32,747 nt of DNA from positions 1 to 32,747 of the forward strand of contig JBDRLB010000019.1 of the NCBI GenBank assembly GCA_043813365.1, read 5' to 3'. A program made the position numbers and the translations under genes. This stretch comes from Candidatus Micrarchaeota archaeon (GTDB taxonomy: Archaea > Micrarchaeota > Micrarchaeia > Norongarragalinales > SBBD01). Shown here in pieces: positions 1,974 to 32,747 of this stretch; the first letter of the stretch is position 1, and every line of letters starts with the position of its first letter. The notes beneath the pieces were generated by a model. That model searched no databases and had not been told where the DNA came from. It saw only the letters and a program-made list of their open reading frames with translations.

Positions 1974-2101
1974 GGGCCCGTAGTCGAGTGGTAAGACGTC
2001 AGTTTCACACAGACCTTTTTCTTTAGAAAAGAAAAAGCTCTACCAAAAAGAAAACGCGTCGTGAAAACTGAAGAACCGGAGTCCGATTCTCCGCGGGCCC
2101 A
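1974..2101 (+). tRNA. tRNA-Val(CAC) with one 56-nt intron (2011-2066, position 38/39)
   Basis: Acceptor GGGCCCG/CGGGCCC+A, D stem GTC/GAC, anticodon stem TCAGT/ACTGA, spliced loop TTCACAC, T stem CGGAG/CTCCG. Splice motif TCAC[AC|A]GAC...GTC GTGA[AA|A]. Confidence 0.9.
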
Positions 2102-2109
2102 TTGATTGC

Positions 2110-2709
2110 ATGCAAGTACCAGGGCCCAGATTGCTCCAAAAGAACATGGGGGAATTCAAAAGGGCAGTCGAGAAGTCTAATGGCAGAGTTTTGGTAGTCA
2201 TGCATCCTGGATTTGATCCGGGCATCTATTGGCATTCTCCGGAATACAATAGCTTTCCCCAGCGTTTGGATGGACTGGTAAAAAAATCAAAAATTCCGGT
2301 AGTTGTCTTTGAAATAAGACCTGGTTTGAAAAATGCCTTGCAACGTTTTGGGAGAAAAAGGAATCATTTCTTCATAGAAACGCCAGGAAACCATGTGCGT
2401 GCAAATCCTAAACCGAGCATGGGCTGGAGGAAGGCCCATGAGCTTTTCCGAGGGGCAAATGTCCGCTATGTTGCAATTGCCGGATTGCTTGCGGTAAAAC
2501 ACCACCCCCCAAAGAAAATAGAAGAATAAGTAAAAAAAGAGGGGTTGAATGTAACCGACCATGTAGTGGAGGGATGTGTGGGAATCGCATACCGGAAATT
2601 CATAGGAGCAAAATTCAAAACCCGCATCGTCCCGAACATGGTTTATCCGCATAAACCGTCATTCGCGCCCAGAGTAATAAAACCGGGCAGAAAAAAAACC
2701 GCATTTTGA
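2110..2709 (+). pseudogene. Isochorismatase-like hypothetical gene interrupted by an in-frame TAA at 2527-2529
   Basis: The frame stays open for 59 further codons after the stop (VKKEGLNVTDHVVEGCVGIAYRKF...TAF*). The segments VLVVMHP, VAIAG and GCV resemble the cysteine-hydrolase motif order and span the stop. Confidence 0.55.
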
Positions 2710-2766
2710 CCCAATAGGAATAATTAAAACTTGCATCAGGCTTAATTTTACCTTCAAGACGATTTT

Positions 2767-3984
2767 ATGAGCCAGCAAAGCAAGGAGATGTACGAGTTCA
2801 AGAAGCAGCTTAAGAAATTGGCTGAATTCCAGGGGAAGGGAACCGAGATGATCTCCCTGTATATCGGGCCGAACATGCAGGTTTCGGATTTCACAGCGAA
2901 GCTCCGGGATGAGTTCGGGCAGGCAAGCAACATCAAGAGCAAATCAACGCAGAAGAACGTGCAGGGCGCAATCGAGCGGGTTATGCAATACCTGAAAACG
3001 CTTTCGCACAAGGCGCCTGCAAGCGGGATCGCGATTTTCTGCGGCAACGTTTCCGAAAGGGAGGGGCAGAGCGACATCCAGCTTTTTTCCGTTTTCCCCC
3101 CTCAGCCCTTGAACACTTCCTTCTACAGGTGCGAATCAACATTCCAGATTGAGCCGCTGGTGGAGATGCTGGAGAAGATCGGCTCATATGGGTTGGTGGT
3201 TTTGGACGGGAAGGAGGCGACAGTTGCAATCCTGAAGGGGAAATCTTTCAAAATAATCCGCACATTGACCTCGACAGCGCACCAGAAAGTTATGAAGGGA
3301 GGGCAGTCCGCCGCAAGGTACCAGAGGATCCATGAGGAGGTAGTTGAAGTTTATTACAAGCGGATAGGAGAGGCGATGGACGCGTTCTTGCAGCTGAATA
3401 ACTTCAAGGGCGTGATTGTCGGCGGCCCTGGCCCGGCAAAGGAGGATTTCATGAAGCTTAAGCCCTACAATTACCAGCTGAAGGTGCTCGGGGTTGTTGA
3501 TACGGGTTATACTGATGAAACGGGAATACGCGAGCTGCTTGAAAAGGCAGGCGACATCATCGAGGAGCAGGAAGCGATAAAGGAGAAGAAGCTGCTGAAT
3601 GATTTCATGAAAGCCGTAGCAACGGATGGGCTTGTGACCTACGGCTATATGGAAATAAAAAACGCGTTGGAAAAAAACCAAATCTCGAAACTGCTTGTTT
3701 CCGAGGGTTTGGAGCTCCATGCACTCAAAATCAAATGCTTCCAATGCGGCAACGAGGAGGAGAAAATCTCCGAATTGAAAGTAGAGAAGCTTGAGGAGGA
3801 GGCAATTTGCAGCAAATGCAATTCAAAAGGCAAAACTACTGAAACAAAGGACCTTCTGGAAGAGCTGCAGGACATTGCCGCTGCAAAAGGAGTTGAGATT
3901 GAGATGATTTCGCAGGAAACGGCTGAGGGCGACCAATTCTTCGGCACATTCCATGGCTTGGGAGCGTTTTTAAGGTACAAATAA
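2767..3984 (+). CDS. prf1: Archaeal peptide chain release factor 1 (aRF1/eRF1)
   Basis: NIKS motif, YxCxxxF (YRCESTF), GGQSAARY, GGPG, and a zinc-ribbon minidomain CxxC...CxxC. Confidence 0.98.
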   Translation: MSQQSKEMYEFKKQLKKLAEFQGKGTEMISLYIGPNMQVSDFTAKLRDEFGQASNIKSKSTQKNVQGAIERVMQYLKTLSHKAPASGIAIFCGNVSEREGQSDIQLFSVFPPQPLNTSFYRCESTFQIEPLVEMLEKIGSYGLVVLDGKEATVAILKGKSFKIIRTLTSTAHQKVMKGGQSAARYQRIHEEVVEVYYKRIGEAMDAFLQLNNFKGVIVGGPGPAKEDFMKLKPYNYQLKVLGVVDTGYTDETGIRELLEKAGDIIEEQEAIKEKKLLNDFMKAVATDGLVTYGYMEIKNALEKNQISKLLVSEGLELHALKIKCFQCGNEEEKISELKVEKLEEEAICSKCNSKGKTTETKDLLEELQDIAAAKGVEIEMISQETAEGDQFFGTFHGLGAFLRYK

Positions 3985-4085
3985 CGTCATCAAGCTTGCG
4001 GCATAATCCTTTTTTTTAGCGATTATAGAAGTCTTTTTAAGCAACAAATTGCATCAATATTATAATAATTTCAGAGGTGTTATAT

Positions 4086-4616
4086 ATGCCTGAGGAACCG
4101 ATTATCAACGACCTTAAGGAGGTTGAGGCAAAAAAAATATTTGAAAAACATCGGCTCGACATTGTTACCGCTGCAAGAGCGCATGCCATCAAAACATCTG
4201 GTCCGGAAAGCGAATCTCGCAACTTTGAATTTCTCAAATCGACCTTGTTCGAGTTGGGGCATAAGGCATTCAAAATGGGTACATCAAAAGACAAGGCACA
4301 CTACATGCACAATGAGGGTTTTGGTGCATTATCGGAAAGGCGTCGTGGAAGTCCCGACAGGAGGGATACTGAACTAATATATTCGCGGCGGGAAAGGATG
4401 AAAGCCGAAAAAACCCAGGATGAAAAATTTGTTGAAGAAACAATTGGCAAAATTGTAAAGACTATTATCGATAGGTCTGACTGGAGTAGAGGATTGCATG
4501 AAAACAAAAAAGGCCACTTATCGGAAGACCAAGAGAATCTCGTTATCAGATTTGTCAAGCGGATGCACAATCTTGGGCCCACTTTGCAGCCGGCGACAGG
4601 AATATCGAAGTGTTGA
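4086..4616 (+). CDS. Hypothetical charged protein
   Basis: ORF with GAGGTG Shine-Dalgarno before the ATG at 4086; no recognised motif. Confidence 0.55.
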   Translation: MPEEPIINDLKEVEAKKIFEKHRLDIVTAARAHAIKTSGPESESRNFEFLKSTLFELGHKAFKMGTSKDKAHYMHNEGFGALSERRRGSPDRRDTELIYSRRERMKAEKTQDEKFVEETIGKIVKTIIDRSDWSRGLHENKKGHLSEDQENLVIRFVKRMHNLGPTLQPATGISKC

Positions 4617-4680
4617 AAAGGAAGACCAGAGATTACGCGAGTTTCGCACGATAGGATTTTCCATTATAGGGGCCTGCCAT

Positions 4681-5499
4681 ATGGACCAGCTATTCCTTCT
4701 TAAACTAATTCTCGCATTCATCTCAGGCGCAGTGGTTGTGACGCTTACAACTGTGATTTCGGAAAGAATCAGCACAAAATACGGAGGGATATTCGCGGCG
4801 ATGCCGAATACGATGGTCATCACTACGATTTTCATCGCGTGGACTCAAAATGTGCAGGCTGCGGTTGAGGCGACAACCTCGGCGCCAATTGGAATCATGG
4901 GGCTGTTTTGCTTTTACATCACATACTTTTACTCAAGTATGAAATGGCCAAAATCGTATTTGAAACCAATAGCAATGGCGCTAATTGCGTGGTTCATTGT
5001 AGCAATTATTGGAAGCACGATAAGGCTCGATTGGTCATTTTCCGCAATCGGAGTCGCATTATTTTCAATTCCCGCTTTTTACATTCTTTATAGGCAAAAA
5101 CCCAACCCTCAGATGAGAAAGGAAAGGGCAACAATAAAGGAGTTGATGATCAGGGGCATTTTTTCCGGCACAGTTGTTGCGGTTGGAGTCATCATCGCCA
5201 AATATTTGAGCATTTATTTCGGAGGGACAATGGCCGCATTCCCGGCCGTACTTACTAGCGCTTTCGCTATTTTGCATTACAAATACGGATCAGCATATGT
5301 GAGGGAATTCCTGCGCACGGTTCCTTTCGGCACACTTTCGCTATTCGTTTTCGCATATTCGGCGAATCAGCTATTTCTTGTTGTAGGGATGGTCTACGGA
5401 ATAATTATTGCACTCGCGTTCTCAATTGCATTTATAGCGGCCATGTATGAATTAGCCAAGGGTAAGGCATTCAGCGGGCACATTGGGAAGAATCAGTAA
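4681..5499 (+). CDS. Multi-pass membrane protein with two related halves (DUF3147-like)
   Basis: About 8-9 hydrophobic helices. Repeated pattern SG.VV......S/A......GG..AA.P in both halves. Start moved to ATG 4681 to avoid overlap with the upstream ORF. Confidence 0.7.
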   Translation: MDQLFLLKLILAFISGAVVVTLTTVISERISTKYGGIFAAMPNTMVITTIFIAWTQNVQAAVEATTSAPIGIMGLFCFYITYFYSSMKWPKSYLKPIAMALIAWFIVAIIGSTIRLDWSFSAIGVALFSIPAFYILYRQKPNPQMRKERATIKELMIRGIFSGTVVAVGVIIAKYLSIYFGGTMAAFPAVLTSAFAILHYKYGSAYVREFLRTVPFGTLSLFVFAYSANQLFLVVGMVYGIIIALAFSIAFIAAMYELAKGKAFSGHIGKNQ

Positions 5500-5837
5500 T
5501 CCAAGCTTCTGATTTTGATTTTCTGCTTCATGGGCGCCTGCATTTCCGCATATGCTTTGGAAAGCTTCAGGTCGAGCTCAATCAGGGCTTTTACTCTGGG
5601 ATTCTGCTTGTTCAGGCAATACATTTCCGCCCGTCCGATTGTGCGCGTTTTCCTTATGAGACCGGTTTCAGTGAGCTTGACCCAGATTTTTTCCATCGTG
5701 ATGCGGGAAATGCCTGTTTCAGCAGCCACTTGGGTTTTGCTGTAGTCGAAACCCGGGAACGTAAGGAAGAAATCAAGCGCCTTCATGTGCGGAGAATCAC
5801 CGAACGTTTCCAAAAATAAACTTTTTTTCGATTCCAA
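5493..5837 (-). CDS. Winged-helix DNA-binding protein
   Basis: FGDSP..KALDF, SKTQVAAETGISRITM (HTH), and wing TRTIGRAEMYCLN. TTG start at 5837 preceded by GGGTGGGG. Confidence 0.8.
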   Translation of the reverse strand: MESKKSLFLETFGDSPHMKALDFFLTFPGFDYSKTQVAAETGISRITMEKIWVKLTETGLIRKTRTIGRAEMYCLNKQNPRVKALIELDLKLSKAYAEMQAPMKQKIKIRSLDY

Positions 5838-11996: not shown

Positions 11997-14900
11997 TCAC
12001 TTCTTGCGTTTAAGCACATAGAAGGCGATCCCTAACACTGCCAGAACAAGCAGGCCGTACTGCCATTGGGATGACGCAGCAGTAAAGAAGCCCGTTGCCC
12101 ACGAGTTTGTTCCTGTGTCGGGAACAATCGGCACATCCAGATTCGGAGCAGGGGGCAATTTTGCCGGCGGTGTTTGGGAGTCGGGTATAACCGCCACCAT
12201 ATTTTCCTCCGGTTCCGGTGCCGCTGTTGGTGCAGCTATTTCCTTGGTTTTTGCCGGTTGCGGAGTTTGGTCCCCTCCAGAATAAGCGCTTGAGCTTACG
12301 TAGGAGTTCCCCGAACTGCCGCTATAGCCATTGTTTGTGCTGGGTGGCGTTGTTGGCTGCGGCGCTTGCACACCTGCTTTTGCGCCCTCGTTGCCCAAAA
12401 CGTCGACGGCGCTCACAGTCCATGTGCCGGTTTTGCCCGGTGTATCAAAGGTGTTCGTTGTGCTCGTGCCCTCCAGGTTCCCATTGAGATAGATGTTGTA
12501 GTGGTCGACTCCGGTCATGTCCGTTGCAGCTGCCCAGCTTAGCGAAGTTCCAGAGAGTGTCACTCCTGCTGGCATCACCGGCCCGCTCAAATCTATCTTG
12601 AAGGTGATTTCGGGGTCTGAGCAATGCGGAGGTATTTCCGCTCCGGAAGGCAAAGTGCCCGTAAAGAGCGAATCACACACCCTTGCCCTGAGGAAGTAGG
12701 TCTTCCCATCCTCAAGCCCTTCCAATGAGGTATTGAAATCAGCGGAGTAATTGCCGTTCTCATCGCTTCCCTCGAAGAACTTCAGCTGCCTCCAGCCGGA
12801 ATCGTATGTGCTGTTCCCGATTGGAATGCCGAAGAGGCTTGCAACGTCCTCGAACACGCGGTACTGCGCCGTGTCAGGGTTGATGCCGGAAATGTCGCTT
12901 GCGTGCATGATTATCGGCATGACCTGGCCGTATGTCGCGCCTGCCTCAGGCGAAAGGATCGCCTTTGAGGGCGGCGTATTGTCAACCATCATCGTGGTGC
13001 TGACGCTGCCACTGTTGAACTCGCGGTCCATTGCATACAATCCCATGGTATGAGAGCCATCGGGGAGCCCGTTGGGGACGGTGCCGAATATCCGGCAATG
13101 CTGGTCATCAATGATGACTCCCTGGAAGTTGAATGTGGCTTCAGTTTCCTCGTCCACTACTTCACCATAGCAGTTCAGCAATTCGGAGTCAACATCAACA
13201 GCCTCTAGCGTCGCGGAGAAATAATCCCCGGTCGAGAGCGGCCTATCGAGCCCTTCCTCGGCAACAAGCTCCACCATCGGCGGAGTGTTGTCGATGTCCA
13301 TCAGGATCTCGTCCTTGTTCTGGTCGCGTGCAAAATCGAACAGCGTGTTGCAGCTCCTGTCGGTTATCTGCACAACAAGGTATGCCTTGTCGGTCAGGCC
13401 CGATTCCTCAGGGATCTGCAGGCTGCCGGCACATACTCCATCGGAATACGGAACATTGCCAAGCGGAACCAATTCGTAACGGCCATCGAGGTATTCAAGA
13501 AGATCATCCAGCCTGCCTGGCACCTTCAGCATCCGCATTACCTCAAGCAACTCGTTATCGGTGAGCTCCTCGAAATGTATGTCGATCGCAAAGAATGAGC
13601 ACTCCTTGAATCCGCTTGCTGGATTGCCCAAATCAATTGCGGGTGCATACACCGAGAATTTCTCGCCATCATGGTACCATCTGCCGGAAGTCGGGTTCAG
13701 CACCCATACCTTCGGAGGCTGCTTGTCAAATATGTCAATTTCGCTTTGGACGGTTTCGATATTGTTGAGCTGGTCGTAACTCCGGTATTCAATCGCGTAA
13801 ATCCCCTCTTCAGAGAAGGAGAAATTCGTGAAGCCGTCGTATTGGATCCAATAGGACCACTCGCCATCACCAATCCGATACCTGTATTCGGTAACTACGC
13901 CATCAACATGGCAGATTGGCCCGCCATCAGGTGCGGAGAAGCCGATCGTTGTGTCACGGCATACGTAATAGTCGCACTCCTCATCCTCATCGCAGGCAGT
14001 TTTATTGCCCATGATGAGCTTCTCTGTTTCTGGCGGAGTGGTGTCCACACGGTCGATTTCGGTTTCCGTAATTGCCTTGTTGCCGAGCGCGTCCTCGCAA
14101 TAATATTCAATGGTATGCACCGAATCCTCCTCGAATTGGATTGTTGCCATGGTGTCATCTACGTACATCCATTCGGTCCATTGGCCGCCATCGACATTAT
14201 ACCGGTAAACGATGCTTACATGGTCAACCGGGTGCGGGTATTGATCCTCGCAGTAAAGGCTGATTTCGGTATCCTGCGTGATGAAATAGTGGCAGTCATC
14301 GCGTTGGAGCTCCGAGCATGGGATCGCCGGTTTGCCCATCGATTTCCTTACAACAGGAGGTTGCGTGTCAACGATATCTATTTCGGTCTGCGTGTATTCC
14401 TCATTGCCCAGCTCATCAATTGAGTGATAGAAGAGCGTGTGCCTCGAGTCCTCCGGGAAGGTGAACGGGCCTTCATAAAGCATCTCATCGCTGCACCATT
14501 CAAACTCTTCGGTTTTCTCATCAGGCATCCCGAGGCAATAGTAGTAGTAGGTTTCCACATTGTCAACCGGATGCGGTTCGGGGTCAACTGCAGTCAGCGT
14601 AATGGGAGTTTGCTGCGTGATATAATAGTCGCAATTCTCCTCTTCTCCCTCATGGCCTTCGCAGGCATGCTTGGGATTGCCAACTGTTTTTGTAGTGACT
14701 GGAGGTACGGATTCCACGACATCCACTTCCCTGTAAACTGGGCCTTCATTCCCGAGTGCATCAACAGCGTAATATTCGAGCTCGTGCCTTGAATCCTCTG
14801 CGAAATAGATGGCTCCCTCATAGAGGTACCATTCGCTCCATTCCCCTCCATCAATGCGGTAGCGGTAATACACTTCCACGCTGTTCACGGGATGGGGAAG

Positions 14901-17900
14901 CGGATCAGTTGCCTCGAACGAGATCGGGGTGCTTTGCGTTATGTAATAGTCGCATCCGAGCGGATCATCATCGCTGCATGCTACTTTGGGATCCCCAACG
15001 GTCTTGACAACTGTCGGGCCCTGGTTATCAACTATGTCAAGCTCCTTTTGCGTTTCTGCAATGTTCCCCAAAAGATCCTTGCAATAGTACTCTACCTCGT
15101 GCATGGAATCCTCGGGCAAATTGAATTGCACCTGGTCGCTTTGCGTGACTATCCATTCTCCCCAGTCGCCCCACACGCTCTGTTCGTCAAACCTGTACCT
15201 GACCCTGTAATAGATCGATACCTGATCCACCGGGTGTGGGTTGGGGTCGTCGCAGTAAAGCGTTATGGGGGTTTGGGAGGTGATGTAAACGCAAAGTGCG
15301 TTCGGCATGCTGCATCCGCCTTGCACGGTAAGGTCATACAGTATAGGCGATGCTTCCTGCGTGCCCTTCATGCTTACCTGCACCTCCAAATACCTTCCAT
15401 TGGGAGTTGTTGCAAAGCCACCGCCATTTGTTACGGTTTCCCAGCTGGACCAGCTTACATGGTTCTCGGAGCTCCTGACTTTGACAATCAATTCGGTCCC
15501 TTCAGGAACATTTGCATTCCATGAAACCGGGCCGAGATCGGAACCGGCTTCACCCGCATCATGCACAACATTCCATGTGCCCACTCTCACAGATGCCCTG
15601 AACCCAAGGCCAGTTGCATCACTGTATGTGTAGGGGCCCCTTCCGGTATTGAAGACACCCAATGCACCGCCATCGGAACCCCGGTATTTTGCCATCCGGT
15701 CATTCCCCCTTAGCAGCACCCATACGTCATTGTTGGAATCAACCACAATCCCCCGGCCTTCGCCGGAATACTGGGTAGCCACGTTCCAAATGACGCTTCC
15801 ATCAGAGGCAAATTTATATGGCGCTGCGGTTGAACTCCTTGAAACCAGGATGTTCCCATCCTTGTCCGTTGCGACCCCATAGGTTGCAAATTTCACTGCC
15901 GCCGGGGTTGAGAATGTCCCGGTTCCGGAATTGTATTCGATGTATGAATAGCCGCTCAATGACCCGAGGTATACATGCGTATTCCCTCCCGAATCATACC
16001 CGAGCGCCACTCCGTAATTGCTGCCATAGCTCGAATGGTAATACAGGTTAACTGCATTCGTATTCGTGTCCAGCCTCAGCAAATTGTTGCCGAGTGACGC
16101 ACCCCAGAGGATTCCGTACTTGTCAACCAATGCGCCATACGGAGTATTCGCGCCAGTAGAGATGGGTCCTGCAAGTATTGCGCCGGTGTCACCATCCAAT
16201 TTGTAGTATGCTGACGACCCATAGCATCCGAGCCAGATATCACCGTTCAAATCAATTGCAAGCGACCTTCCAACGCAGTTGTTCGGTCCCACACGGGAAA
16301 CCCATGCAACGCGCTCATCAGTTATTTCACTGGGATCGATGATATTGTTGGTGTTGCTGTCCGTCATTTGGAGCATTTCAGACGGAAGTATGTTGCCGCT
16401 GCTGTCCGCATTGAAAGAGGTGTCAATTACGCCATTCCCATTGCGGTCAATCCAGTCATCCGCATAGATTTTAATCACATCTGCCGGCCTGCCGTCAAAA
16501 TGCCTGTTGGCGACATAGACGTTTCCATCCGCGTCAACAGCCGTCCTTGAAGGCGCAGGGCCCGACCAGTCATCATGGTTGGCAAGCGGCCCGAACCAGG
16601 TGTGGTACCTTGCAAGCTCCACATTGTTTGTCGTATCCCATTTTGAAAGCGAATCCTCGCCGGCATTGGCGATCCACATTATCGGGTAAGTGTCGCTTTC
16701 CCCGGCCTGTATTTGCAGTTGGTCAGCCACGGTATCATGTTCCAGGCCTACGAGTGTTCCCATATCAAAATCCGAGTTGATAGTGTACGTGTATGACGAG
16801 CTGCCATCCTCGCATTCCACGGGCTCTTCATCGCACCATACTTTGGGATCGCCCACCACTTTCCTTACAACGGGCGGGACTGTTTCCACAATGTCGATTT
16901 CCGTCTGTTCAACCTCTGTGTTGCCCAAGGCATCGATGCAATAGTATTTCAAAGTGTGCATCGAGTCCTGCGGGAACGTGAACGGTTCATCATAAAGCAT
17001 CAATTCCGTCCACTTGCCGTCATCGACCATGTATTGATAGTATATCTGCTCTCCGCCAACTGGATGCGGATTTGGATCCTCGCACGTAAATGCTATGGGA
17101 GTTTGCTGCGTGATGTAATAGTCGCATCCGAGCGGATCATCATAAGCGCACTCCACTTTCGGGTCGCCGACTTCCTTTACAGTAGCAGGAGGCTGCGAAT
17201 CAACAACGTCCACTTCGGATTGCACCTGCTCGGCATTCCCAAGCGCATCCTCGCAATAATACTCGAGGGTGTGCTTCGAATCCTCGGGGAAAGAGAATGG
17301 CTCTCCATAAAGCATCCATTGCCCGAACTGGCCGTCATCTACGCTGTAGCGGTAGTACACGTTAACATGATCCACCGGGTGCGGCTCCGGATCGGTGCAT
17401 TCCAGCGTGATCATCGTGTCCTGGTTGATGTAATAGTCGCAATTGTTCGGGTCCTGAGGGTCGCACTCCACCTTGGGGTCTCCAACTGTTTTGATTGTTA
17501 CGGGCGGGACGGTTTCCACAATGTCATATTCGTAATAATGCTGTCCCTCGTTGCCAAGCGCATCAGTTGCATAATATTCGAGCTCGTGCCACGAATCCTC
17601 GGGGAAGGTGAACGGCCCGGTGTAATTTGTCCATTCGGTGCATGGAATTACCGTAAGCAGCACTTCGGAAAGCCCTTGTGTGCAATACCTGTAAGTAATT
17701 ACAACCGGTTTGTCCTTCACATGGCTGTAATCGGTTGCCATAAAAGTGATCGGCGTTTGCTGCGTGATGTACCAGTCGCATTCCTCCTGCGGAGTGCATT
17801 GGTGCTTCGGTTCTCCGACTGTTTTCTCTACTGTTGGGGGAGTCGAATCGACCTTGTCCACTTCGGTTTGCACCTTCTCCTTGTTGCCAAGCGCGTCCTC

Positions 17901-20900
17901 GCAGTACCATTCGAGTGCATGGCGGGAGTCTTCCTTGAAGGTGAATGGCTCAGTGTAAACCGTCCAATCGGTGCAGAATGGTTCATCCACTTCCGTTACG
18001 CAGTATTTGTAATTGATTTTTACATCGTTTACTGGATGCGGTTCGGGATCAATGCATTCCAAAGTGATTGGCGTTTGCTGCGTAATGAAGTAATCGCAGT
18101 CGTCCCCTGTTTCGCATTCCAATTTCGGGTCGCCAACGGTTTTTTCGCTCTCCGGAGGCTGCGTGTCAACAACATCAGTTTCAAATTCGTGCTCATTCAC
18201 ATTTCCGAGAATGTCCTCGCAGTAGTACTCCAATTCATGTATGGAATCCTCCGGGAAGGTGAATGTCGCATTCGTGCCATCCACATTCTCAAAATCGGAC
18301 CATACATTCCAGTCTGATTTCCAGTCCTCCTTGGTGCGGTAGCGGTAGCTGATCGCAACATGGTCGACCGGATGGGGCTGGCCGTCCTCGCAGATTATTG
18401 ATATTGAGGTATCCTGGGTGATGAAAGTGAACCCATCCCCTTGCACTTTCGGATCGCCTATTAATTTCCTCATGGAAGGCGGCTGCGTATCAACCACATC
18501 AACCTCCATCTGCTCCTTCTCCTTGTTTCCGAGTGAATCTTCGGAGTAGTAATATAGGGTGTGCCTCGAATCCTCTTCGAATGCGAACGGGCCGGTGTAG
18601 ATCATCCAGCCGGTGCAATATGGCTTCTCAACTTCGGAGACGCAGTATTTGTACCAGGTGGTGACATCATTCACCGGATGCGGCTCGGGGTCAACTGCAG
18701 CCAAGGTGATAGGTGTTTGCTGCGTGATGTACCAGTCACACTCTTCCTCAGTAATGCATGCATGCTTAGGCTCGCCAACCGTTTTGGTTGTTACGGGCGG
18801 GACCGTTTCCACAATGTCGATTTCGGTCTGCACCTGCTCGGCATTCCCCAATGCATCAACGCAGTAATATTGGAGCATATGCTTCGAATCCTCTGCGAAT
18901 GTGAACGGTTCCCCGTAAACCACCCATTCCGTGAATGCACCGCCATCTACGCTGTAGCGGTAGTAAACGGTTGCATCATTGACGGGATGAGGCTGCGGGT
19001 CAACGCACCTGAAAGTTATTGGAGTTTGCTGGGTGATGTAATAATCGCACCCTAACGGATCATCGTCGGAACATTCAACGCTAGGCTGGCCGACAAATTT
19101 CTCCGTTATTGGAGGCTGCGAATCCACGAAATCCGCCTCCACAATGGGGTTGCCTTTGTTGCCGACGTAATCAACTGCATAATACTCCAGGGTGTGGTAG
19201 GAATCTTCCTGATAGCTGAAGGAACCGGCGTATTCCATCCATTCAGTGCAGCTTTCCGGATCGACATCAAAGTCGGGCCGCGTGCAGATGCGGTAGTATA
19301 TCTTGATGGGCTTGTTTTCAGCATGGCCGAAATCAGTCGCGGTAAGGGTGAACAAGGTGCTCTGGTTAACGTAGTAATGGCAAACATATCCGCCGGTTGG
19401 TTCTGTTTCACATTCTATTTTGGGATCACCGACTGTTTTCTCAACTGTTGGAGACTGCGAATCAACCTTCTCCACTTCTACGTGCTTCTGCTCTACATTC
19501 CCAAGCACATCCTCGCAATACCATTCGAGCTCGTGCCTTGAATCCTCCTTGTATGTGAACGGTTGGGAATAAGTCGTCCATTCAGTAAATGCGCCATCAT
19601 CAACTTTGTAGCGGTACTTTATCACAACTGCATCGGAAGGATGCGGCTGCTGGTCCTCACACGTAAGGGTTATGGAGGTCTGCTGGTTGATGAAGTAATC
19701 GCAGTCATCGCCTGTTCCGCACAGCGCTTTCGGCTCGCCAAGAGTTTTTTCGCTGATGGGCGGCTTTGTGTCAACAATATCGATCTCAAAGTGGTGCCTT
19801 TCCTCGTTCGCGCAATAATCAATTGAATAATACTCTATTTCATGAATGGAATCCTCGCTGAAGCTGATCGGCCCGGAATAAAGAATCCAGCTGCTCCACG
19901 CGCCCCACGGGTCGGCAAAATCAATTTTGTACCTCACGCGGTAATAGATTTTCTCGTTGTCTGAGTAGTAGCCATCCGCTGGGATGAAATCGGTTGTATT
20001 AAGGGATATCAGCGTGCTCTGGGTGACAAAATAGCATGCCTCTGCTTCCTGCTGGTCACCGAGGTAATCGCACCTCACTTTCGGAGTGCCGATTGTTTTC
20101 ACTGTTGTTGGAGGAGTGCGGTCTATCACGAAGCATACTTCCGGCTGGAAGCTCATTTTCCCCCAATTGCCCGCAAGGTCCCTGCCATGCAATTTCACGC
20201 AATGCCTTCCCTCGCCAAACCGGGAGTTGTTGATCGTTGCATTTACCCATTCGCAAAGCTCATCGAACAGCCCATCCGAGGCGAACATCGGGTAGCCCGC
20301 GCCATTCGGCAGCCGGGTCCAGTTGCCATCCATGAAATACTCCGCGTACGTTATGGGAGACTGTGAATCACAGATTTCAGAAATGAGCAGCGGATTTTGT
20401 GCGCACGCCCAATAAGGAATGGTAACGTTCCTCACGATTTCCGGAGGAATCAGGTCCATGTCGAATGGGACCGAGCTGCATTCGCCCCAGACGCCAGCAA
20501 TGTTCTGGGACCTCACATAAATGTCATGTCTGCCATCAACGATCCCATAATTCGCAAGTATCAAGTCAAGCCTGCTAATGTATTCCACCAGCTTCTCCTC
20601 GTTGTATGTGCCATCGTCGGCCGGGTAAACATAATAGCCGGTGCCCGGATAGCCGCATTCATCGAAATAGAATTCGGAATAATTTATCGGGGTGCATGTG
20701 TCTGTTGTCGTTGCATGGAAATTGATCTTGTAATTTGTCGGATCGGGGTATGCAACCAGATCGGTTACAACCGGGCCCGTAAGGTCAAGCGGGCCTTGGG
20801 TGCCGTCACAAACATCATAATATACGCCTTCCTGGCAGAACATCGAGGAGTACCTGTCTCCACAGCCGTTTTCTGTGCATGACTGGAAGCCATAATAGCA

Positions 20901-28189: not shown

Positions 28190-28274
28190 TTGGCACCGGA
28201 TCTAGTAACCGCTCCGATTTTTTAATGGTTTGGCTCCGCCGCCAAAGAAGGAATTTGATTTGCAGAATAAGAAA

Positions 28275-28534
28275 TGCAGGGGGGGAGATTTGAATTCGGG
28301 GACCGCACCGGATTGATGCAATCTCTCCCGCAGCCCTAAGGCACAGGGTTTCCTGGAGCCCTTTCTTTTTCCCGAAGCTTTTTCTTCCGCGAAGACTTAA
28401 CAAGTCTTCGGGGCCGTGAAGAACGGAGTTCTTCCCGGTCGGGAAAGAAAAAGGCTCTCCTAAGCCCTGCGCATTTGACCAGGTTGCAGCAAACCTCCCT
28501 TCAATGAAGGAAGGAACGCCTCTGCCACCCCTGC
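28275..28534 (-). tRNA. tRNA-Leu(TAG) with three introns (15/16: 28484-28519; 37/38: 28350-28458; 53/54: 28295-28324)
   Basis: Spliced product: GCAGGGG TG GCA GAGCCTGGTCAAA TGC G CAGGG CTTAGGA CCCTG long variable arm GGGAG TTCAAAT CTCCC CCCCTGC A. Each junction has bulge-helix-bulge geometry. Confidence 0.92.
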
Positions 28535-28585: not shown

Positions 28586-28984
28586 TTACTCCGTTGTTTT
28601 CCCGTCGAAATGCTCTTCCTTCGCAAGCGCATCCTTCTTCGTTTTGCGCAAGACCTTGTCCTGGTGCTCCGGAGGGGAATAAATAGTGTATAATTTCAAA
28701 TCGGTTTTGCCGACATTGATTACATTGTGCTCCGCACCGGAAGGCACGATTACGCCTGAACCGTCTGAAACGGGATTCCTTTTCCCATCAATCACGACTA
28801 CGCCCCTTCCCTTCTCAAAACGGAAAAACTGGTCGACATCGGGATGGGTTTCGCTGCCTATCTCCTCACCGGGTTTAAGGCACATCAGCACAAGCTGGGA
28901 ATATTTGCCGGTATAAAGCACTTTGCGGAAATTCGAATTTGCCAAAGTAGCCTGCCCCAAATTGGCATTAAATCCCCTCTTCAT
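28586..28984 (-). CDS. Cupin domain protein (mannose-6-phosphate isomerase-like family)
   Basis: FRKVLYTG..SQLVLM.L.PGEEIG.E.H...DQFFRFE.G.G, VPSGAEHNVIN, LKLYTIYSPPEH. ATG 28984 with GGAGGGGTG Shine-Dalgarno. Confidence 0.9.
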   Translation of the reverse strand: MKRGFNANLGQATLANSNFRKVLYTGKYSQLVLMCLKPGEEIGSETHPDVDQFFRFEKGRGVVVIDGKRNPVSDGSGVIVPSGAEHNVINVGKTDLKLYTIYSPPEHQDKVLRKTKKDALAKEEHFDGKTTE

Positions 28985-29033
28985 ACCAAACACCCCTCCC
29001 GCTATATGCGTAAAAAAAATAAAAATGGAAAAA

Positions 29034-30548
29034 TCAGATCTTCGGGAACATCGCATTCTTGTTCTGGTTCGAATCGACCTTTTCCCTCTGCAATATCGGC
29101 TTGTTGCCGCCGGAGCCCATTACGGTTTTGATTTCCATCTCCTTTACGTGCCCTCCGCCCTTCTTCCTGAATTTCAATACGTAGATTATGACGCCGATGA
29201 CCGATGCGACAAGCACAACGATCGCCGCCATTATGGTGGGGTCGTTCAGGTCGCTTTGCTTCGTCGGAAGGGTGTTTGCACGGTCGCGGAGTTCGTCCGC
29301 ACGCTTCGCGATTGCCTGGAAGTCCGCCACCTTCACTTCCGTCTGGTTCGCAATCCTCTGCCCAAGGATGGCCAAATCCTTTACGACATCAACGTACTTG
29401 TTATTGAGGTCGATGACTCGCGTATCGGTGTCCCCGAACTGCTTCTTCGCAGCATCAATCGACTTCTTCGACTCATCCACGCTGTGCAGGGTGTTGTTGT
29501 AGGCATAAAACAGCCCTTTGGGATCGTTTATCAGCGCCTCAAGCTCCCCGTATTTCACGTTCATTTGGTTGAAGTTGGCCGAGGCGGTCTCGAGAAGAGT
29601 CGCATTCTGGAGCCTTTCATTCGCGGTTTCAATTTCCGCCTTCTTTGCCTCTATTGGCTCGAATTTGACGTCCACCTTAAGGACGAGGTTCTTCGTCTTC
29701 TCCATCAGGTCGCGTCCGTTGGTCTGCAGCTCCTTTACGGATGCCACGTCCTTCCGCTTGTTGAACTCGGCAATGATTTCTTTTGCCTCGGAATTCACAT
29801 CGGTAATCTTATTGCGCATTGCCTGCGAGGAGAGCGATATCACATCATCCACCAGGGAATAATCGAAAAGGCACACGGGGTCCTTGTCCATGGTGTTCCC
29901 GAGGAAATACCGGTAGCCTATTGACGGGTCGTCCATGAATATGGTTTCATTCTTCGCGTTCTTTGCAGCCTCCTCGATCTGGGTCAACGCGCTTATTATC
30001 GCATCCTTTGTATCGGCAGTCCTCAACAGTTCCACCTTCGCCTTGTAAGCGTCCCATGCGGCCTTCCACCTAGCCCTCTGCGCGAATGCCAAATCGCATA
30101 CCCTTCCGGTCGCGGCATCGATGCACTTGAACTGGTACCAGAAAAAAGCATCCTCCACGTACTTGTAGAAATTGTTATGGCACAAATTGAACAGGTAATC
30201 GGACTGGTTGAACTTATCGAACAAATCCACTTTGCTCTGCTCGGTGAAGCCAGTTGCGCCGCTCACCTTGTAATAGTCCTTGAGCACTTCAACCAAAACG
30301 GCCTCGTTAAGAACGGGCGCTACCCTGTCATCAAAAACAACGGAATTCTTGTCATCAATTTGCAGGATGAAGTAGGTTTTCCCCGTTGTGGAAAGGTTCA
30401 TCTTGAAATAGGAGGCGCTTTCCCCGCGCATTATGTACTTTTTCGCTTCTGCGGAAATTTTGTCGTCAAGCGCATCGGCCGAAACCACGTTCGCAAACAT
30501 GGCAGCTATTAGCAAAAGAAGGGCAAACAGCCTGAATGTCGAATCCAT
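29034..30548 (-). CDS. Exported helical/coiled-coil protein with a C-terminal TM anchor and cytoplasmic tail
   Basis: Signal peptide ending VSA-D, long heptad-like helical region, TM IMAAIVVLVASVIGVIIYVL followed by KFRKK, and GGAGG Shine-Dalgarno. Confidence 0.8.
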   Translation of the reverse strand: MDSTFRLFALLLLIAAMFANVVSADALDDKISAEAKKYIMRGESASYFKMNLSTTGKTYFILQIDDKNSVVFDDRVAPVLNEAVLVEVLKDYYKVSGATGFTEQSKVDLFDKFNQSDYLFNLCHNNFYKYVEDAFFWYQFKCIDAATGRVCDLAFAQRARWKAAWDAYKAKVELLRTADTKDAIISALTQIEEAAKNAKNETIFMDDPSIGYRYFLGNTMDKDPVCLFDYSLVDDVISLSSQAMRNKITDVNSEAKEIIAEFNKRKDVASVKELQTNGRDLMEKTKNLVLKVDVKFEPIEAKKAEIETANERLQNATLLETASANFNQMNVKYGELEALINDPKGLFYAYNNTLHSVDESKKSIDAAKKQFGDTDTRVIDLNNKYVDVVKDLAILGQRIANQTEVKVADFQAIAKRADELRDRANTLPTKQSDLNDPTIMAAIVVLVASVIGVIIYVLKFRKKGGGHVKEMEIKTVMGSGGNKPILQREKVDSNQNKNAMFPKI

Positions 30549-30661
30549 CTAAATCGCCTCCGCTTGATTAGTCAGAAATCCTTTATAAATGTATTTTGAG
30601 CGATTTGGCGATCACGGAAAATATAAAAAGGGGAAAATGGAAAAAAAGATTTTTTCCCGGT

Positions 30662-32155
30662 CTATTCGGTAAGAAGCGGATTGCTCACCCTGCCCATGAA
30701 CAATATCGCCCCATTCGAATTGTCCTGAATCAGGAATATGAACGGGTGGTCGGCTGTGAAATCCGGGATCCGGACGGGCATTTCAACCGAAGTCATTCCT
30801 ACAATGATTCCGGTTGCAGCAGCAGCCTCAGTACCTTCCTCGTTCACCTCCACAAAAGCCTTATGGAAAGCGTCGGAAACGAAGAGATCCTTTTGGCCGT
30901 CAATGCCGGATAGGTCCGCGGTTTCCGAAAATGCCTCGCGAATCCCCATTGCCTTTAGTTGGCCCTTGAGATTGTAATTCTTCGTGAATTTGAATTTAGG
31001 CAGGGTAACAATGACATCCTTGGAGGCGAGCGATGTTTTCCACGCAGCCAGATTCGCCGGGTTGAGCTCCTTCTCCAATTCGCTTATGCCATTACCCTTC
31101 GGAAGCAGGATAAGCATTGAAAGGTCCTCCCCTTTGTAGTCCATATCCAGCATCTGCAGCTTTTCGTTCTCCATGTATTTGAAAATATCTGTTTTATGCA
31201 TCATGGAAACGACCCTCGTCTGTGTTGCATCCAATTTGAAATCACCATCCTCCGTCAATTTTTTGTCGAATTCCTCAACCCATGCACCCTTGAAGTAGAT
31301 GGCGTTTGTAATTACCAGCCGTGTTGACGGGTGTATTGACCCTTCAGGAAGCAGGTCCTTGATCTTCTCATTTGTTTTGCTTTCCACCCATTTGTTTATG
31401 GTATTCCTTGAGCCTTCCGCATCCGCCTTGAAATCGAGGTTGTTCGCCTCGCTGGAATAATAATCGATTGCAGCCTGCTTGTAATCCGGCAGTATTGCAA
31501 AGTCCTTCTGCATCCAAAGCGCGTTCGCGACATTGAGCTGATAAGATCCGTTCTTCGGAACCAGCCTTGCATTCAATGATTTGAAAGCGTCATGCCTCTT
31601 TGCGGCGTTGGGATCAAACCCGAACACGTTTTCAATTTCCTTTGCAGTATTCCCTTTTGCGCCCTCGTAAAGGATTCCGAAAGCCTCCGCCATGCTGAAG
31701 CCGGAAAAGAAGAGGTTGCCGGGGTTGCCCTTAATCTGGGAGTAGAAATCAAGCGTGAATTTGTTCGTTGCATCTGAAAGATCGGCATTTGAAGGAATTG
31801 GCGTTGCCGTTGTTTCCGGCGTAGGAGTCGGCGTAATCAAGCCCGTGCACCTCCAGTTGATTTCAGCTGTTTTGGTCTCCAGATTTACAACGCAAGCGGG
31901 CGAGCATCCCTCATGCCCTTGGACATTCATGCCTATCCAGTAGGTCCCGGTCATGGAGTTGCACCATATAACATCGGCCAGGATCCCGGATTCCATGCAA
32001 ACGCTTTCTGATGCGATTTTCATTGCTACCGCGCCAGTAATTTTCAAATCCGTTCCATCCTTAGTACAGGCAATATTTTCATCCGGAATTGGTTGCGTGC
32101 AACCGAACAAAATAAAAGCGCCAACAAGCAAAAATGAAAGTGCAAAATATTTCAT
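30662..32155 (-). CDS. Serpin (serine protease inhibitor) with lipoprotein-like signal and N-terminal Cys-rich domain
   Basis: NLFFS, INKWVESKTNEKIKDLL, NAIYFKGAW, LPKFK, hinge EEGTEAAAAT, FTADHPFIFLI, LFMGRVSNP. Start ATG 32155 (GGGTGA Shine-Dalgarno) with LFGC box. Confidence 0.95.
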   Translation of the reverse strand: MKYFALSFLLVGAFILFGCTQPIPDENIACTKDGTDLKITGAVAMKIASESVCMESGILADVIWCNSMTGTYWIGMNVQGHEGCSPACVVNLETKTAEINWRCTGLITPTPTPETTATPIPSNADLSDATNKFTLDFYSQIKGNPGNLFFSGFSMAEAFGILYEGAKGNTAKEIENVFGFDPNAAKRHDAFKSLNARLVPKNGSYQLNVANALWMQKDFAILPDYKQAAIDYYSSEANNLDFKADAEGSRNTINKWVESKTNEKIKDLLPEGSIHPSTRLVITNAIYFKGAWVEEFDKKLTEDGDFKLDATQTRVVSMMHKTDIFKYMENEKLQMLDMDYKGEDLSMLILLPKGNGISELEKELNPANLAAWKTSLASKDVIVTLPKFKFTKNYNLKGQLKAMGIREAFSETADLSGIDGQKDLFVSDAFHKAFVEVNEEGTEAAAATGIIVGMTSVEMPVRIPDFTADHPFIFLIQDNSNGAILFMGRVSNPLLTE

Positions 32156-32320
32156 ATCAATTTTCACCCAATAGTTAAAACCGGCGTTTAATAATACCTT
32201 TTCCAAATTGCTAGGCAAACGCTTAACTATCGCCTGCTTGAAACCTTTAAAAAAGCGGGCGGGCATAATTGTAGTCCATTCCCTAGACTAGAAATGAGTA
32301 GGGAAGATGTGAGTTTTTAT

Positions 32321-32576
32321 CCCGCAGTAGCTCAATCTGGCTGAGCGTCTGTAGGCCTTTTCACACGAAGAGGCATGACGAAACTGTAGTTCGGCTGACT
32401 TCACATGAAGTCGAATCGCTTACCAGAAATCAGAAGGCTGCCAGTTCAAATGCCCGCGACGGGGACACCTTGCCGGTTTCCCCTTGACCGGGCCGGTCGT
32501 TCCCCTTCCCAAAGAGGAACTTTCGGTCCGCCGTATATTTATTATCCGGTTTGGGCGGTAAATCTGGCCTGCGGGA
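32321..32576 (+). tRNA. tRNA-Tyr(GTA) with three introns (30/31: 32352-32382; 37/38: 32390-32428; T-loop, best fit 59/60: 32451-32562)
   Basis: Spliced product: CCCGCAG TA GCTC AATCTGGCT GAGC G TCTGA CTGTAGA TCAGA AGGCT GCCAG TTCAAAT CTGGC CTGCGGG A, a fully paired cloverleaf. Confidence 0.9.
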
Positions 32577-32609
32577 TTTTATATTTATGCTGCATTTGTT
32601 TGCAGTACT

Positions 32610-32747
32610 GCCTTGGTAGTGTAGTGGTCCAGCATAGGGGCTTGTCGTTGAGCCTCTTTTTCTTTCCAAAAGAAAAAGACCCTCGGGAGAACAAAGAAAG
32701 GGTCTTGATCTGCGAATCAGGAAAAGAGGTTCTGCAAACAGCCCTTG
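32610..32747 (+). tRNA. tRNA-Asp(GTC), 3' end outside the window, with a 92-nt intron at 37/38 (32648-32739)
   Basis: GCCTTGG TA GTGT AGTGGTCCA GCAT A GGGGC TT GTC G | intron | A GCCCT. BHB TTGT[CG|T]...GCAA[AC|A]. TTTTATATTTA box upstream at 32577-32587. Confidence 0.88.

Follow-up and report, generated by a model that had tools for sequence, protein, structure and literature searches.

The window analyzed here, which spans positions 1 to 32,747 of the forward strand of contig JBDRLB010000019.1 (Candidatus Micrarchaeota archaeon, GCA_043813365.1), contains the genes for tRNA-Val(CAC), tRNA-Leu(TAG), and tRNA-Asp(GTC), each with an intron in its anticodon loop. An earlier note on this DNA had described three blocks in these introns, and we found them exactly at the positions it gave and in the order it claimed: a pyrimidine block (Y), its inverted repeat (R), and a mirror copy of R. 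As it also reported, all three copies have one orientation relative to the tRNA, and a 7-nt linker is seen in the Val and Leu copies; that orientation is sense. We refer to such a unit as an arm, which is composed of a short terminal helix, a hairpin of the Y and R arms, a linker that is either 7 to 12 nt long or a GC hairpin, and a final purine tract mirroring the purine arm.

The tRNA-Val gene (1974..2101, +) has a single intron and matches Rfam entry RF00005 with 53.5 bits. ARAGORN, with introns allowed, detected the gene with a miscalled anticodon, and the CAC anticodon was verified against the intronless orthologue L038. The 56-nt intron at position 37/38 (2010..2065, +; ARAGORN i[33,56]) was delimited by orthologue comparison, and a 4-bp helix drawn by hand between two bulges (2005-2008/2061-2064) is a candidate relaxed bulge-helix-bulge (BHB) motif. 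The Val arm (2015..2054, +) consists of Y (2015-2024), R (2028-2037), the 7-nt linker, and the mirror of R (2045-2053/4); its linker is of the CTCTACC-like type common to reverse-oriented copies abutting the 5' ends of class II tRNAs.

The tRNA-Leu gene (28275..28534, -), which ARAGORN did not recover, was delineated by eye in an alignment with four orthologues of the genus and contains three introns. The 37/38 intron (28350..28458, -, 109 nt, with a boundary ambiguity of 1 nt) was defined by comparison with G003, which has no intron there, and with G002 and G005, which have a short form. Its arm (28362..28453, -) comprises Y (28453-28444), R (28387-28378), the linker (28377-28371), and the mirror block (28370-28362), and its hairpin loop carries a 56-nt insert (28388..28443, -) missing from the G002 and G005 orthologues. 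The hairpins that had been noted in this insert are indeed there, but they are not specific to Leu: they form a two-hairpin module of ∼46 nt that recurs in other arms of G003 and G004, with both hairpins predicted by RNAfold and both showing compensatory changes. The two other introns lack triple blocks; one lies in the D region (28484..28519, -, ∼36 nt, boundaries within ∼2 nt) and is missing in the G005 orthologue, and the other lies in the T arm at 53/54 (28295..28324, -, ∼30 nt, by eye against G002 and G003). In the 3' trailer (28212..28272, -), we recognized by eye a decayed arm, missed by the regular expression, in which the centre hairpin of the family is followed by a Y tract and a GC hairpin.

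The tRNA-Asp gene (32610..32747, +) was assigned by eye from its 5' exon, its intron, and the first 8 nt of its 3' exon, which is truncated by the contig end, so that ARAGORN cannot recover it. Its 92-nt 37/38 intron (32648..32739, +) matches the family in an nhmmer search with an E value of 3.4e-18. The arm (32656..32699, +) has its blocks at 32656-32665, 32669-32678, and 32691-32699, the last with one mismatch to the third block of Val and Leu. The alignment showed that a centre hairpin (32706..32719, +) is common to the short and long forms of the family, and the same palindrome is found at the middle of long T-loop introns.

We then looked at the frequency of the motif in the whole genome. 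The three-block architecture was significantly enriched, with 40 arms compared to a mean of 2.5 (range, 0 to 6) in 20 Markov-1 simulated genomes, but one 10-mer block alone was not (11 matches versus a mean of 5.35, with at least 11 in 3/100 shuffles). Classification by eye placed 24 arms in tRNA introns, 6 in 5' flanks, 4 in 3' flanks, and 5 at other intergenic sites, between protein genes, with 1 of unknown location. Thus, 34/40 arms lie in or beside tRNA genes, at 37/38, at 53/54, in the T loop, and in both flanks, and they occur either as single units or with two inverted copies flanking a small palindrome. Deleting the arm-bearing stretch and rerunning ARAGORN recovered a tRNA at 12 places, which we take as confirmed intron cases. 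Among the introns called by ARAGORN, arms were present in 6/6 of those of at least 56 nt and in 0/7 of those of at most 36 nt. The suggestion of a dispersed non-autonomous element residing in tRNA introns therefore holds as far as the arms are ORF-less, dispersed, and mostly intronic, but they are not restricted to anticodon-loop introns. The likeness between the three introns of the window is part of a large repeat family, not an oddity of three copies, and this family is abundant and nearly confined to stable-RNA genes and their edges.

In 30 related genomes, the arm pattern had 426 matches, versus 19 for a control pattern read backward; 21 genomes contained arms and 9 did not. In G011, G019, and G023, arms were found inside the small- and large-subunit rRNA genes and the RNase P RNA gene. 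Presence of the element varies between orthologous tRNAs of the genus, as the comparison proposed earlier was meant to reveal: at position 37/38 of tRNA-Leu, G003 has no insertion, G001 has one of 18 nt, G002 and G005 carry the short element, and G000 carries the element with the module; the tRNA-Val intron occurs in three species and is missing from two Val genes of G010. Identity over 55 nt is possible between copies located in different tRNAs and at different positions, as shown by C3 (37/38) and C17 (53/54). The family belongs to tiny Micrarchaeota-type archaea and undergoes fast gain and loss between species. Our literature searches found no description of it.

Covariation of the blocks, whose absence the earlier note had named as a refutation, bears out the mirror relationship, since block 3 changes with block 2 as its mirror across many tract-length classes. 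Block 3 was an exact mirror match in 43/69 arms, against a mean of 6.8 and a maximum of 20 in 5000 permutations, and among the 48/69 arms where both blocks are asymmetric, 42 were mirror and 6 direct. Four other families (88 arms), which include patterns with two interruptions such as 4,3,2 / 2,3,4 / 4,3,2, gave 40 exact matches, 28 of which have an asymmetric block 1; another 18 arms come within a single base of a match, and 1 is direct. The mirror was not kept in a G023 subfamily of five arms with a TTCAGT-like linker. Such tracking of block 1 by block 3 is demanded by a three-stranded fold and not by alternative Watson-Crick pairing.

We propose that the three introns are probably members of a lineage-wide, ORF-less repeat family of the triplex type, which is kept in the form of predicted BHB introns, like the transposing introns of Thermoproteales, and would spread at the DNA level. 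In the transcript, the terminal helix, together with a few bases able to pair with the exon, would make a BHB motif, which the splicing endonuclease would cut before a ligase joins the exons. The insertion would then be silent, so that the family could build up in tRNA and rRNA genes despite the high compactness of the genome. The genome encodes a 388-aa EndA that aligns over its full length with 4FZ2 (E = 2e-128) and is of the ARMAN-2 epsilon2 type, and the 3' ends of T-loop introns covary with the host T loop (by eye). The enzyme is present in 29/30 relatives, and nine relatives have the same endonuclease without arms, so it makes the family possible without accounting for it. The mirror block may be retained because one strand folds back as a three-stranded helix, as in the bacterial BoxC/PIT/TMECO repeats. 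Stable-RNA genes may pass arms to one another through copying or recombination, perhaps with help from fold-caused instability, and neither a resident HUH transposase nor a reverse transcriptase would be involved.

Orientation bears on which strand folds. The sense strand reads Y-R-R in 18/21 arms located in rRNA and RNase P RNA of relatives and, by eye, in 12/16 single intron arms of this genome. This bias is not expected of a purely DNA-level element unless transcription filters orientation, as it might if termination plays a part, the sense Y-R-R order having one oligo-T block and the reverse two. RNA function or RNA-mediated spread would account for it directly. It is conceivable, if unlikely, that the arms are functional structured RNAs, with the circular released intron or the leader folding into a shape used by the cell for intron RNA stability, as a guide, or as a processing signal; in the Y-Y-R order, this shape would be a U.A-U major-groove triple helix. 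All tested RNAs were more stable than shuffles (z scores of -3.6 to -4.8), compensatory changes affect the ACCC/GGGT helix as well as the module hairpins, and, by eye, 4/4 copies at tRNA 5' flanks and 4/4 at 3' flanks have the order capable of a U.A-U triplex. However, the Y-R-R order favored in introns corresponds to the purine motif, a triplex type that RNA reportedly does not adopt (PMC4666352), making an RNA triplex unlikely in the three introns of the window. Against a triplex of either kind, in DNA or RNA, ViennaRNA predicted competing Watson-Crick folds, with blocks 1 and 3 of Val pairing over 8 bp and a long closing helix in Asp. A further constraint applies to minimal introns, whose third strand would stop at the closing helix and, as long as the helix at the splice sites is formed, could not lie against the hairpin; triplex and BHB would then be mutually exclusive. 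Relative to the tRNAs, members of one subfamily point either way, five arms have protein genes on both sides, and nine related genomes are arm-free; G.U pairs (18 versus 15) display no strand asymmetry that would flag either strand as the folding one. Given the purine-motif order, the two orientations, and the constraint in minimal introns, single-stranded DNA is more likely than RNA to be the folding strand.

Improbable in our view is a benefit to the host in cis, by which the arms would serve as rigid local folds at exon edges that stop long insertions from disturbing the folding of the tRNA or rRNA, or that help to place RNase P or the splicing endonuclease. Every arm has its hairpin end toward the neighboring exon or gene edge, four leader copies stop 2 to 3 nt 5' of tRNA position 1 (by eye), T-loop introns pair with the host T loop through their 3' ends, and RNase P RNA is present in the genome alongside the epsilon2 EndA. 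Yet an outer end directed toward the host is seen with any inverted-repeat insertion, orthologous tRNAs of sister species function without the element, whole families with the same EndA are arm-free, and such a role needs no mirror tract.

We also consider it quite doubtful that the introns transpose via RNA, an excised intron being ligated into a stable RNA at a BHB-like site, copied into DNA, and recombined. Besides the sense orientation of nearly all intron copies, the insertion sites are those able to form a BHB, and the positions of related introns vary, as they do in Thermoproteales (PMC4090602). Against this, RVT_1 was not found in G000 (88.6% complete) or in 29/30 relatives, the sole holder, G021, is arm-free, and there are antisense copies at tRNA flanks and copies between protein genes. 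The least credible possibility, which we regard as remote, is that an HUH (Y1) transposase moves the arms as single-stranded DNA, which would make them a miniature element of the REP/REPIN-like or IS200/IS605-derived kind: the architecture is hairpin based, inverted pairs resemble REP doublets, and the genome has one IS200-type Y1_Tnp gene, but that gene is flanked by its own GC hairpins unrelated to the arms, Y1_Tnp does not track the arms (8/21 genomes with arms versus 4/9 without) and is missing from nine genomes with 14 to 46 pattern matches, and our search for TnpB found none. The link to an HUH/TnpA-like gene envisaged by the earlier note is therefore not borne out, and we saw no target-site duplication and found no transposase or other mobilizing gene for the arms.

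Compared with known systems, the arms resemble REP/BIME/REPIN elements with their RAYT transposases and MITEs in being small, ORF-less, hairpin forming, dispersed, and found as inverted doublets around a spacer, but they differ in having no co-occurring HUH gene, no visible target-site duplication, a mirror third block, and a habitat in stable-RNA genes. They also resemble RNA triple helices of the ENE/MALAT1 type, since a Y-Y-R RNA could presumably form ∼9 U.A-U triples and one C.G-C triple, whereas the majority of intronic copies run the opposite way and there is no A-rich 3' tail to protect. In Thermoproteales, families of transposing BHB tRNA introns have been described (Fujishima et al. 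2010, via PMC4090602 and a 2026 preprint). According to the available parts of these sources, they share with the arms recent gain and a broad-specificity endonuclease in the host, and related introns are known there in different tRNAs, contrary to the earlier note's view that BHB introns of different isotypes normally have unrelated sequences. The present family differs in its DPANN host with an epsilon2 enzyme, in the hairpin-plus-mirror architecture common to its introns, and in also occupying leaders, trailers, rRNA and RNase P RNA genes, and a handful of intergenic sites. "Ca. Micrarchaeum" ARMAN-2 also combines disrupted tRNA genes with an epsilon2 endonuclease (Fujishima et al. 2011, PMC3239211), shares introns at 37/38, 53/54, and 59/60, and has a tRNA-Pro(GGG) with two T-loop introns, as seen here by eye on C43; unlike the arms, its introns are described as short (13 and 25 nt), and the available text of that paper mentions no repeat family.

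Our best reading is that the family may be an archaeal, A/T-rich counterpart of BoxC/PIT/TMECO, the bacterial intrastrand-triplex repeats (Holder et al. 2015, PMC4666352; Hoyne et al. 2000, cited there). As far as the available text of PMC4666352 describes them, both have the order Y, inverted R, mirror R (class II), stems of 9 to 10 nt, dozens of copies per genome as single units or inverted pairs, and a patchy distribution among close relatives tied to local rearrangement with no transposase nearby. The arms are archaeal and A/T-rich with one or two C/G interruptions, whereas BoxC/PIT/TMECO are G/C-rich, and the second loop is 7 to 24 nt or a GC hairpin in the arms, compared to 3 nt. They differ further in habitat: the word tRNA is absent from PMC4666352, whereas nearly all arms are sited in genes for tRNA, rRNA, and RNase P RNA and form the body of the introns there.

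The three tRNA genes of the window are all interrupted, and default ARAGORN, run without introns, therefore calls no tRNA in it. The tRNA-Val gene (1974-2101, plus strand) matches the Rfam tRNA model with a long insertion after the anticodon, and ARAGORN with introns allowed recovers it with a 56-nt intron and a miscalled anticodon. We fixed the loop by means of the intronless tRNA-Val(CAC) of a relative (G010), which places the intron at 2010-2065 (plus strand). The tRNA-Leu(TAG) gene (28275-28534, minus strand) was compared with four orthologues of the genus and contains three introns; a decayed copy of the repeat lies 3' of it, at about 28212-28272 (minus strand). The tRNA-Asp(GTC) gene, read by eye, starts at 32610 on the plus strand and has a 92-nt intron ending at 32739 (plus strand), with the contig end falling 8 nt into the 3' exon. 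Joining the exons gives a standard tRNA for Val (according to Rfam, deletion followed by ARAGORN, and the intronless orthologue) and for Leu (according to the orthologues), the Asp gene being cut by the contig end. The block sequences of the Val, Asp, and Leu copies are exactly those given in the earlier note: a pyrimidine block 1, an inverted purine block 2, a linker, and a mirror purine block 3, together termed an arm. The Asp intron also holds a small palindrome (32706-32719, plus strand), the same as that found at the center of long forms with paired arms. For the Val splice site, a 4-bp helix (2005-2008/2061-2064) can be drawn by hand, with a 3-nt bulge on one side and, on the other, a bulge of 2 nt that faces an unpaired base; in hand-drawn T-loop members, UUCG, UUCA, or UCCG pairs with the 3' end of the intron. 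Elsewhere in the window, DNA contigs from public runs skip 2.8 to 3.8 kb within 14.1-17.9 kb (14099-17926) and 68 to 83 bases at 28834-28919, inside a reading frame (28586-29056, minus strand); both skips probably come from relatives or repeats.

We then looked into the abundance of arms in the whole genome (G000; 1.34 Mb in 78 contigs). A 10-mer block alone is not unusual, with 11 matches versus 5.35 expected and 3 of 100 shuffles reaching 11. The composite pattern of the earlier note, with one mismatch allowed per block, is found at 11 places. A general expression (T-tract C T-tract, loop, A-tract G A-tract, 4- to 24-nt linker, A-tract G A-tract) yielded 40 matches versus a mean of 2.5 (range, 0 to 6) in 20 Markov-1 genomes with the same dinucleotide makeup, so that the three-block pattern is enriched over composition-matched sequence. 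We discarded one match in a reading frame of contig C22 as spurious and entered by hand the Leu copy, which the expression missed because its loop is 56 nt, leaving 40 arms at 33 places. Their stems of at least 8 nt, with pyrimidine (Y), complementary purine (R), and mirror purine blocks in that order on one strand, correspond to the class II definition of intrastrand triplex motifs (ITxF/TMECO). At least three subfamilies occur in G000: short introns whose linker is of the CCCTTGGG type (Asp and Leu); copies with a 7- to 8-nt CTYNACC-type linker (Val); and copies bearing terminal GCCTTGCC in which a GC hairpin serves as the linker, which commonly form inverted pairs about the small palindrome and make introns of about 150 nt. 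The Asp copy and those on contigs C43 and C76 match the family profile with E values of 1e-18 to 1e-20, and a tRNA-Cys copy at position 37/38 (C3) is identical over 55 nt to a copy at position 53/54 of a different tRNA (C17). In Rfam, the window, the family loci, and 20 archaeal and bacterial loci of the motif matched only tRNA.

Placement by eye, guided by ARAGORN, put 24 of the 40 arms inside tRNA introns (at 37/38, 53/54, or T-loop position ∼58/59), 6 in tRNA 5' flanks, 4 in tRNA 3' flanks, and 5 between protein genes, with 1 unplaced. Among the introns called by ARAGORN, all six of at least 56 nt contain arms, versus none of the seven of at most 36 nt. Deleting every interval and rerunning ARAGORN at 36 places gave a junction-spanning tRNA in 12 intron cases, including a tRNA-Asn with a 144- to 146-nt T-loop intron, and an adjacent tRNA in 7 flank cases; at the window Leu gene, it returned just nine unreliable calls. 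At 16 of the 36 places no tRNA was obtained, and the context there comes from reading; among them are the five intergenic places, several genes that contain two or three introns, and three genes truncated at a contig end. Box C/D motifs are known from archaeal tRNA-Trp introns, and the intron of a tRNA-Trp(CCA) gene cut by a contig end (C46:38983-39283, minus strand) has box C/D-like motifs followed by a reverse-oriented arm. The 3' trailers of two tRNA-Leu genes (C11:5156-5210 and C13:21378-21430) are conserved between them and include a GGGGAG...CTCCCC hairpin, and a related hairpin lies 3' of the tRNA-Leu(TAG) gene of the relative G003. By eye, a tRNA-Pro(GGG) gene (C43:172-514) apparently has three introns, one at 37/38 and a T-loop pair at 53/54 (with an arm) and 59/60, an arrangement also pictured for ARMAN-2 tRNA-Pro(GGG) in the excerpts of PMC3239211.

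Comparison with relatives revealed that the arms are widespread and come and go. A 211-nt query taken from a long T-loop intron detected numerous copies in each of the other five genomes of the genus, as well as in several further families. Across 30 genomes, a simple three-block pattern gave 426 matches versus 19 when read backward, with 33 in G000, up to 46 elsewhere, and none in 9 genomes that are 80 to 90% complete. At the 37/38 site of tRNA-Leu(TAG), G003 is empty, G001 has 18 unrelated-looking bases, G002 and G005 have a short element, and G000 has the element plus a ∼46-nt module of two hairpins within the loop of the arm. The D-region and T-loop sites of this tRNA vary independently among the five genomes. 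In G003 and G004, arms of two subfamilies also carry this module in their hairpin loop, and compensatory changes are seen in both hairpins of the module. The tRNA-Val(CAC) intron is present in three species of the genus and absent from two Val genes of G010, and an extra T-loop arm is found in tRNA-Val(CAC) of G003. The presence/absence comparison of orthologous tRNAs suggested by the earlier note thus uncovers differences between relatives at both the Leu(TAG) and Val(CAC) sites. In addition, a relative's DNA contig from one public run has 12 bases matching the G001 form in place of window positions 28354-28455. Searches of G000 with SSU and LSU models found no rRNA gene, and arms in rRNA were therefore examined in relatives only. 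Stretches from four other families contain arms inside 16S and 23S rRNA genes; heavily interrupted rRNA operons with arms within the insertions are found at L180 (G011:C63:4300-11200), L187 (G019), and L193 (G023), and the G011 16S gene spans 2,931 nt versus 1,478 model positions. In G023, the RNase P RNA gene likewise contains one arm (L193, 319-350).

We then analyzed how the three blocks relate to each other. For a block 1 of the form T(n) C T(m), hairpin pairing requires a block 2 of A(m) G A(n); block 3, with A(n) G A(m), mirrors block 2. In a set of 69 distinct arms (G000 and the first set of relatives' loci), the pattern of block 3 equals that of block 1 exactly in 43, versus a mean of 6.8 and a maximum of 20 in 5,000 permutations; block 3 thus covaries with block 2, as the triplex symmetry proposed in the earlier note leads one to expect. 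Both blocks are asymmetric in 48 of the 69 arms, 42 being mirror and 6 direct (in most of these 6, the outer A-run of block 3 is merely longer), and the remaining 21 have a symmetric block 1 or block 3. The 88 distinct arms taken from four other families, some with two-interruption patterns, comprised 40 exact cases (28 with an asymmetric block 1), 18 within one base, 1 direct, and 29 other, mostly because the expression splits the blocks differently; since these regions were preselected by a 3,3 core pattern, they are informative only beyond that core. Copies that share descent do not count as independent; the weight lies with the different classes obeying the rule, of which there are more than 10. 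An exception to the rule is one G023 subfamily (5 arms). Alternative Watson-Crick pairing of block 3 with block 1 was rejected as the cause, as it would favor a direct repeat, which is essentially unseen; to a duplex-binding protein, block 3 would present a different site. The structure known to account for such a mirror rule is a three-stranded helix, which is here a candidate fold. In the excerpts of PMC4666352, the third strand runs antiparallel to the purine arm on the Y-R-R strand (purine motif) and parallel to it on the complementary Y-Y-R strand (pyrimidine motif).

The main argument for RNA-centered alternatives, in which the arms would act as functional RNAs or spread by way of RNA, is orientation. 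Three relatives have 21 arms inside rRNA or RNase P RNA genes, of which 18 are Y-R-R in the sense direction and the other three overlap a sense match; in G000, by eye, single intron arms are 12 versus 4 in the Y-R-R sense and all eight tRNA-flank arms are opposite to it. Orientation relative to transcription is therefore not random. RNAfold predictions were significant but ambiguous, the low-complexity blocks pairing in more than one competing way. We consider single-stranded DNA the more likely folder, for the following reasons. The Y-R-R order preferred in introns is reported, in the excerpts of PMC4666352, not to form a triplex in RNA; the same subfamily is found in both directions; some copies are located in the gaps between protein genes; G.U pairs are not biased to either strand (18 versus 15); and block 3 directly abuts the closing helix in the minimal Val and Leu introns, so that it could probably not align with the hairpin as long as the splice-site helix stays closed. 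The orientation bias itself might result from selection against oligo-T blocks on the sense strand of genes that are read through, where the Y-R-R orientation would carry one such block and the reverse orientation two. Such selection would fit the reverse orientation of arms in trailers.

Four of the six 5'-flank arms stop 2 to 3 nt ahead of position 1 of a class-II tRNA or a tRNA-like 5' end, and the other two are overlapping matches on C50 beside a duplicated 5'-exon piece; the 3'-flank arms lie 40 to 75 nt downstream of the tRNA gene. The T-rich block of the 5'-flank arms falls at -27 to -19, but oligo-T would make a poor TATA box, and we do not favor a putative promoter. Duplicated pieces accompany several arms: ∼35 nt of a tRNA 3' end and trailer past a solo arm (C42:10163-10502), ∼40 nt of a protein-gene end (C74:3697-4042), a 12-nt 5'-exon piece upstream of an intact tRNA (C50:18288-18657), and a pseudo 3'-exon downstream of an arm (C2:28565-28905). 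These look like local rearrangement at arms. The idea of split tRNAs, with arms pairing in trans as in Nanoarchaeum, was set aside, as the exon pieces on C2, C42, and C50 duplicate portions of intact neighboring tRNAs; no partner halves were seen around the arm-linked exon pieces of G000.

G000 encodes a predicted splicing endonuclease for noncanonical sites. This 388-aa protein has two PF01974 matches, and its alignment with the ARMAN-2 enzyme 4FZ2 (E = 2e-128) runs from one end to the other; that enzyme, a three-unit protein of solved structure, cuts strict and relaxed motifs according to the excerpted text of PMC3239211. The same endonuclease is found in 29 of 30 relatives, including all nine without arms, and an RNase P RNA gene is present in G000. 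The association with an HUH/TnpA-like gene for which the earlier note advised a search did not hold up: Y1_Tnp occurs in 8 of 21 arm-holding versus 4 of 9 arm-free genomes and does not track the arms, and the sole IS200-type gene of G000 has end hairpins unrelated to them, which speaks against an HUH transposase. That gene (C8:1-620; L055) lies at a contig start, encodes a 172-aa Y1 transposase between two GAAATCC-hairpin ends, and has, by eye, an apparently higher G+C content than the genome; it probably arrived recently. REP/REPIN-RAYT and IS200/IS605-derived repeats, defined by a repeat-flanked or co-occurring HUH Y1 transposase, do not accommodate the family, nor do MITEs, as the long forms have inverted arms but no autonomous partner was found in G000. 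An integrase-like gene is present on C63. Apparent target-site duplications at T-loop introns were rejected, as these repeats are the exon-intron helix; the flanks of inserted introns are similar because of the splice-site helix. Neither reverse transcriptase nor TnpB was found in G000, and RVT_1 occurs in 1 of 30 genomes, one without arms.

The motif extends well beyond these archaea. Counting one genome per species, we found the exact CTTTTTCTTT / AAAGAAAAAG / AAAAAGAAA motif (5,3 class) at no fewer than 122 loci (L057-L178; at least this many), mostly bacterial and from many phyla; the same class occurs as an intron in a Diapherotrites tRNA and in tRNAs of other named Micrarchaeia-type records. 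Hosts among the matches listed include gut Clostridia, Selenomonadaceae, Bacteroides, Gastranaerophilales, Lysobacter, and Haemophilus. Among the motif loci listed, the stem is lengthened by covarying pairs, and by eye the bases immediately 3' of block 3 can often pair with the hairpin loop, in a pseudoknot-like layout. A terminator-like hairpin lies 3' of the motif in several Clostridia among the matches listed. Rfam gave no match for the listed bacterial loci.

Archaeal tRNA and rRNA intron gain is an unsolved problem that this family makes tractable. The family is large and recent and has a defined structure, its gains and losses are visible within one genus, and its mirror third block points to a physical structure that can be tested. 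Arms may also contribute to the difficulty of detecting and assembling tRNA and rRNA genes in these small archaea, and tRNAs are likely underannotated in genomes of this lineage. Our broadest proposal, which we consider doubtful, is that a three-stranded fold-back in single-stranded DNA (in RNA if reversed) would be the working core of self-propagating, ORF-less archaeal introns that invade tRNA, rRNA, and RNase P RNA genes and are hidden by bulge-helix-bulge splicing, and that the same module in bacteria would serve as a general transposase-free device for mobility or instability.

Full-text searches on tRNA and rRNA introns of Micrarchaeota and DPANN, on triple helices in archaeal tRNA introns, and on intrastrand triplexes in genomes turned up no description of the family; the words triplex, mirror, and purine are absent from a 2026 preprint on Asgard tRNA introns. 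Two known systems come close, and the family joins their two literatures, on bacterial triplex-type repeats and on disrupted archaeal stable-RNA genes. As excerpted from PMC4666352, the bacterial intrastrand-triplex repeats resemble it in block order, in their layout as single copies or inverted pairs, in patchiness, in a link to instability, and in doing without a transposase. The transposing tRNA introns of Thermoproteales, in the parts of PMC4090602 consulted, resemble it in that similar introns occupy different tRNA types and positions and are present or absent among relatives. The G000 family differs from both in composition, linkers, and host lineage and, above all, in its stable-RNA-gene habitat, and it combines features of the two systems.
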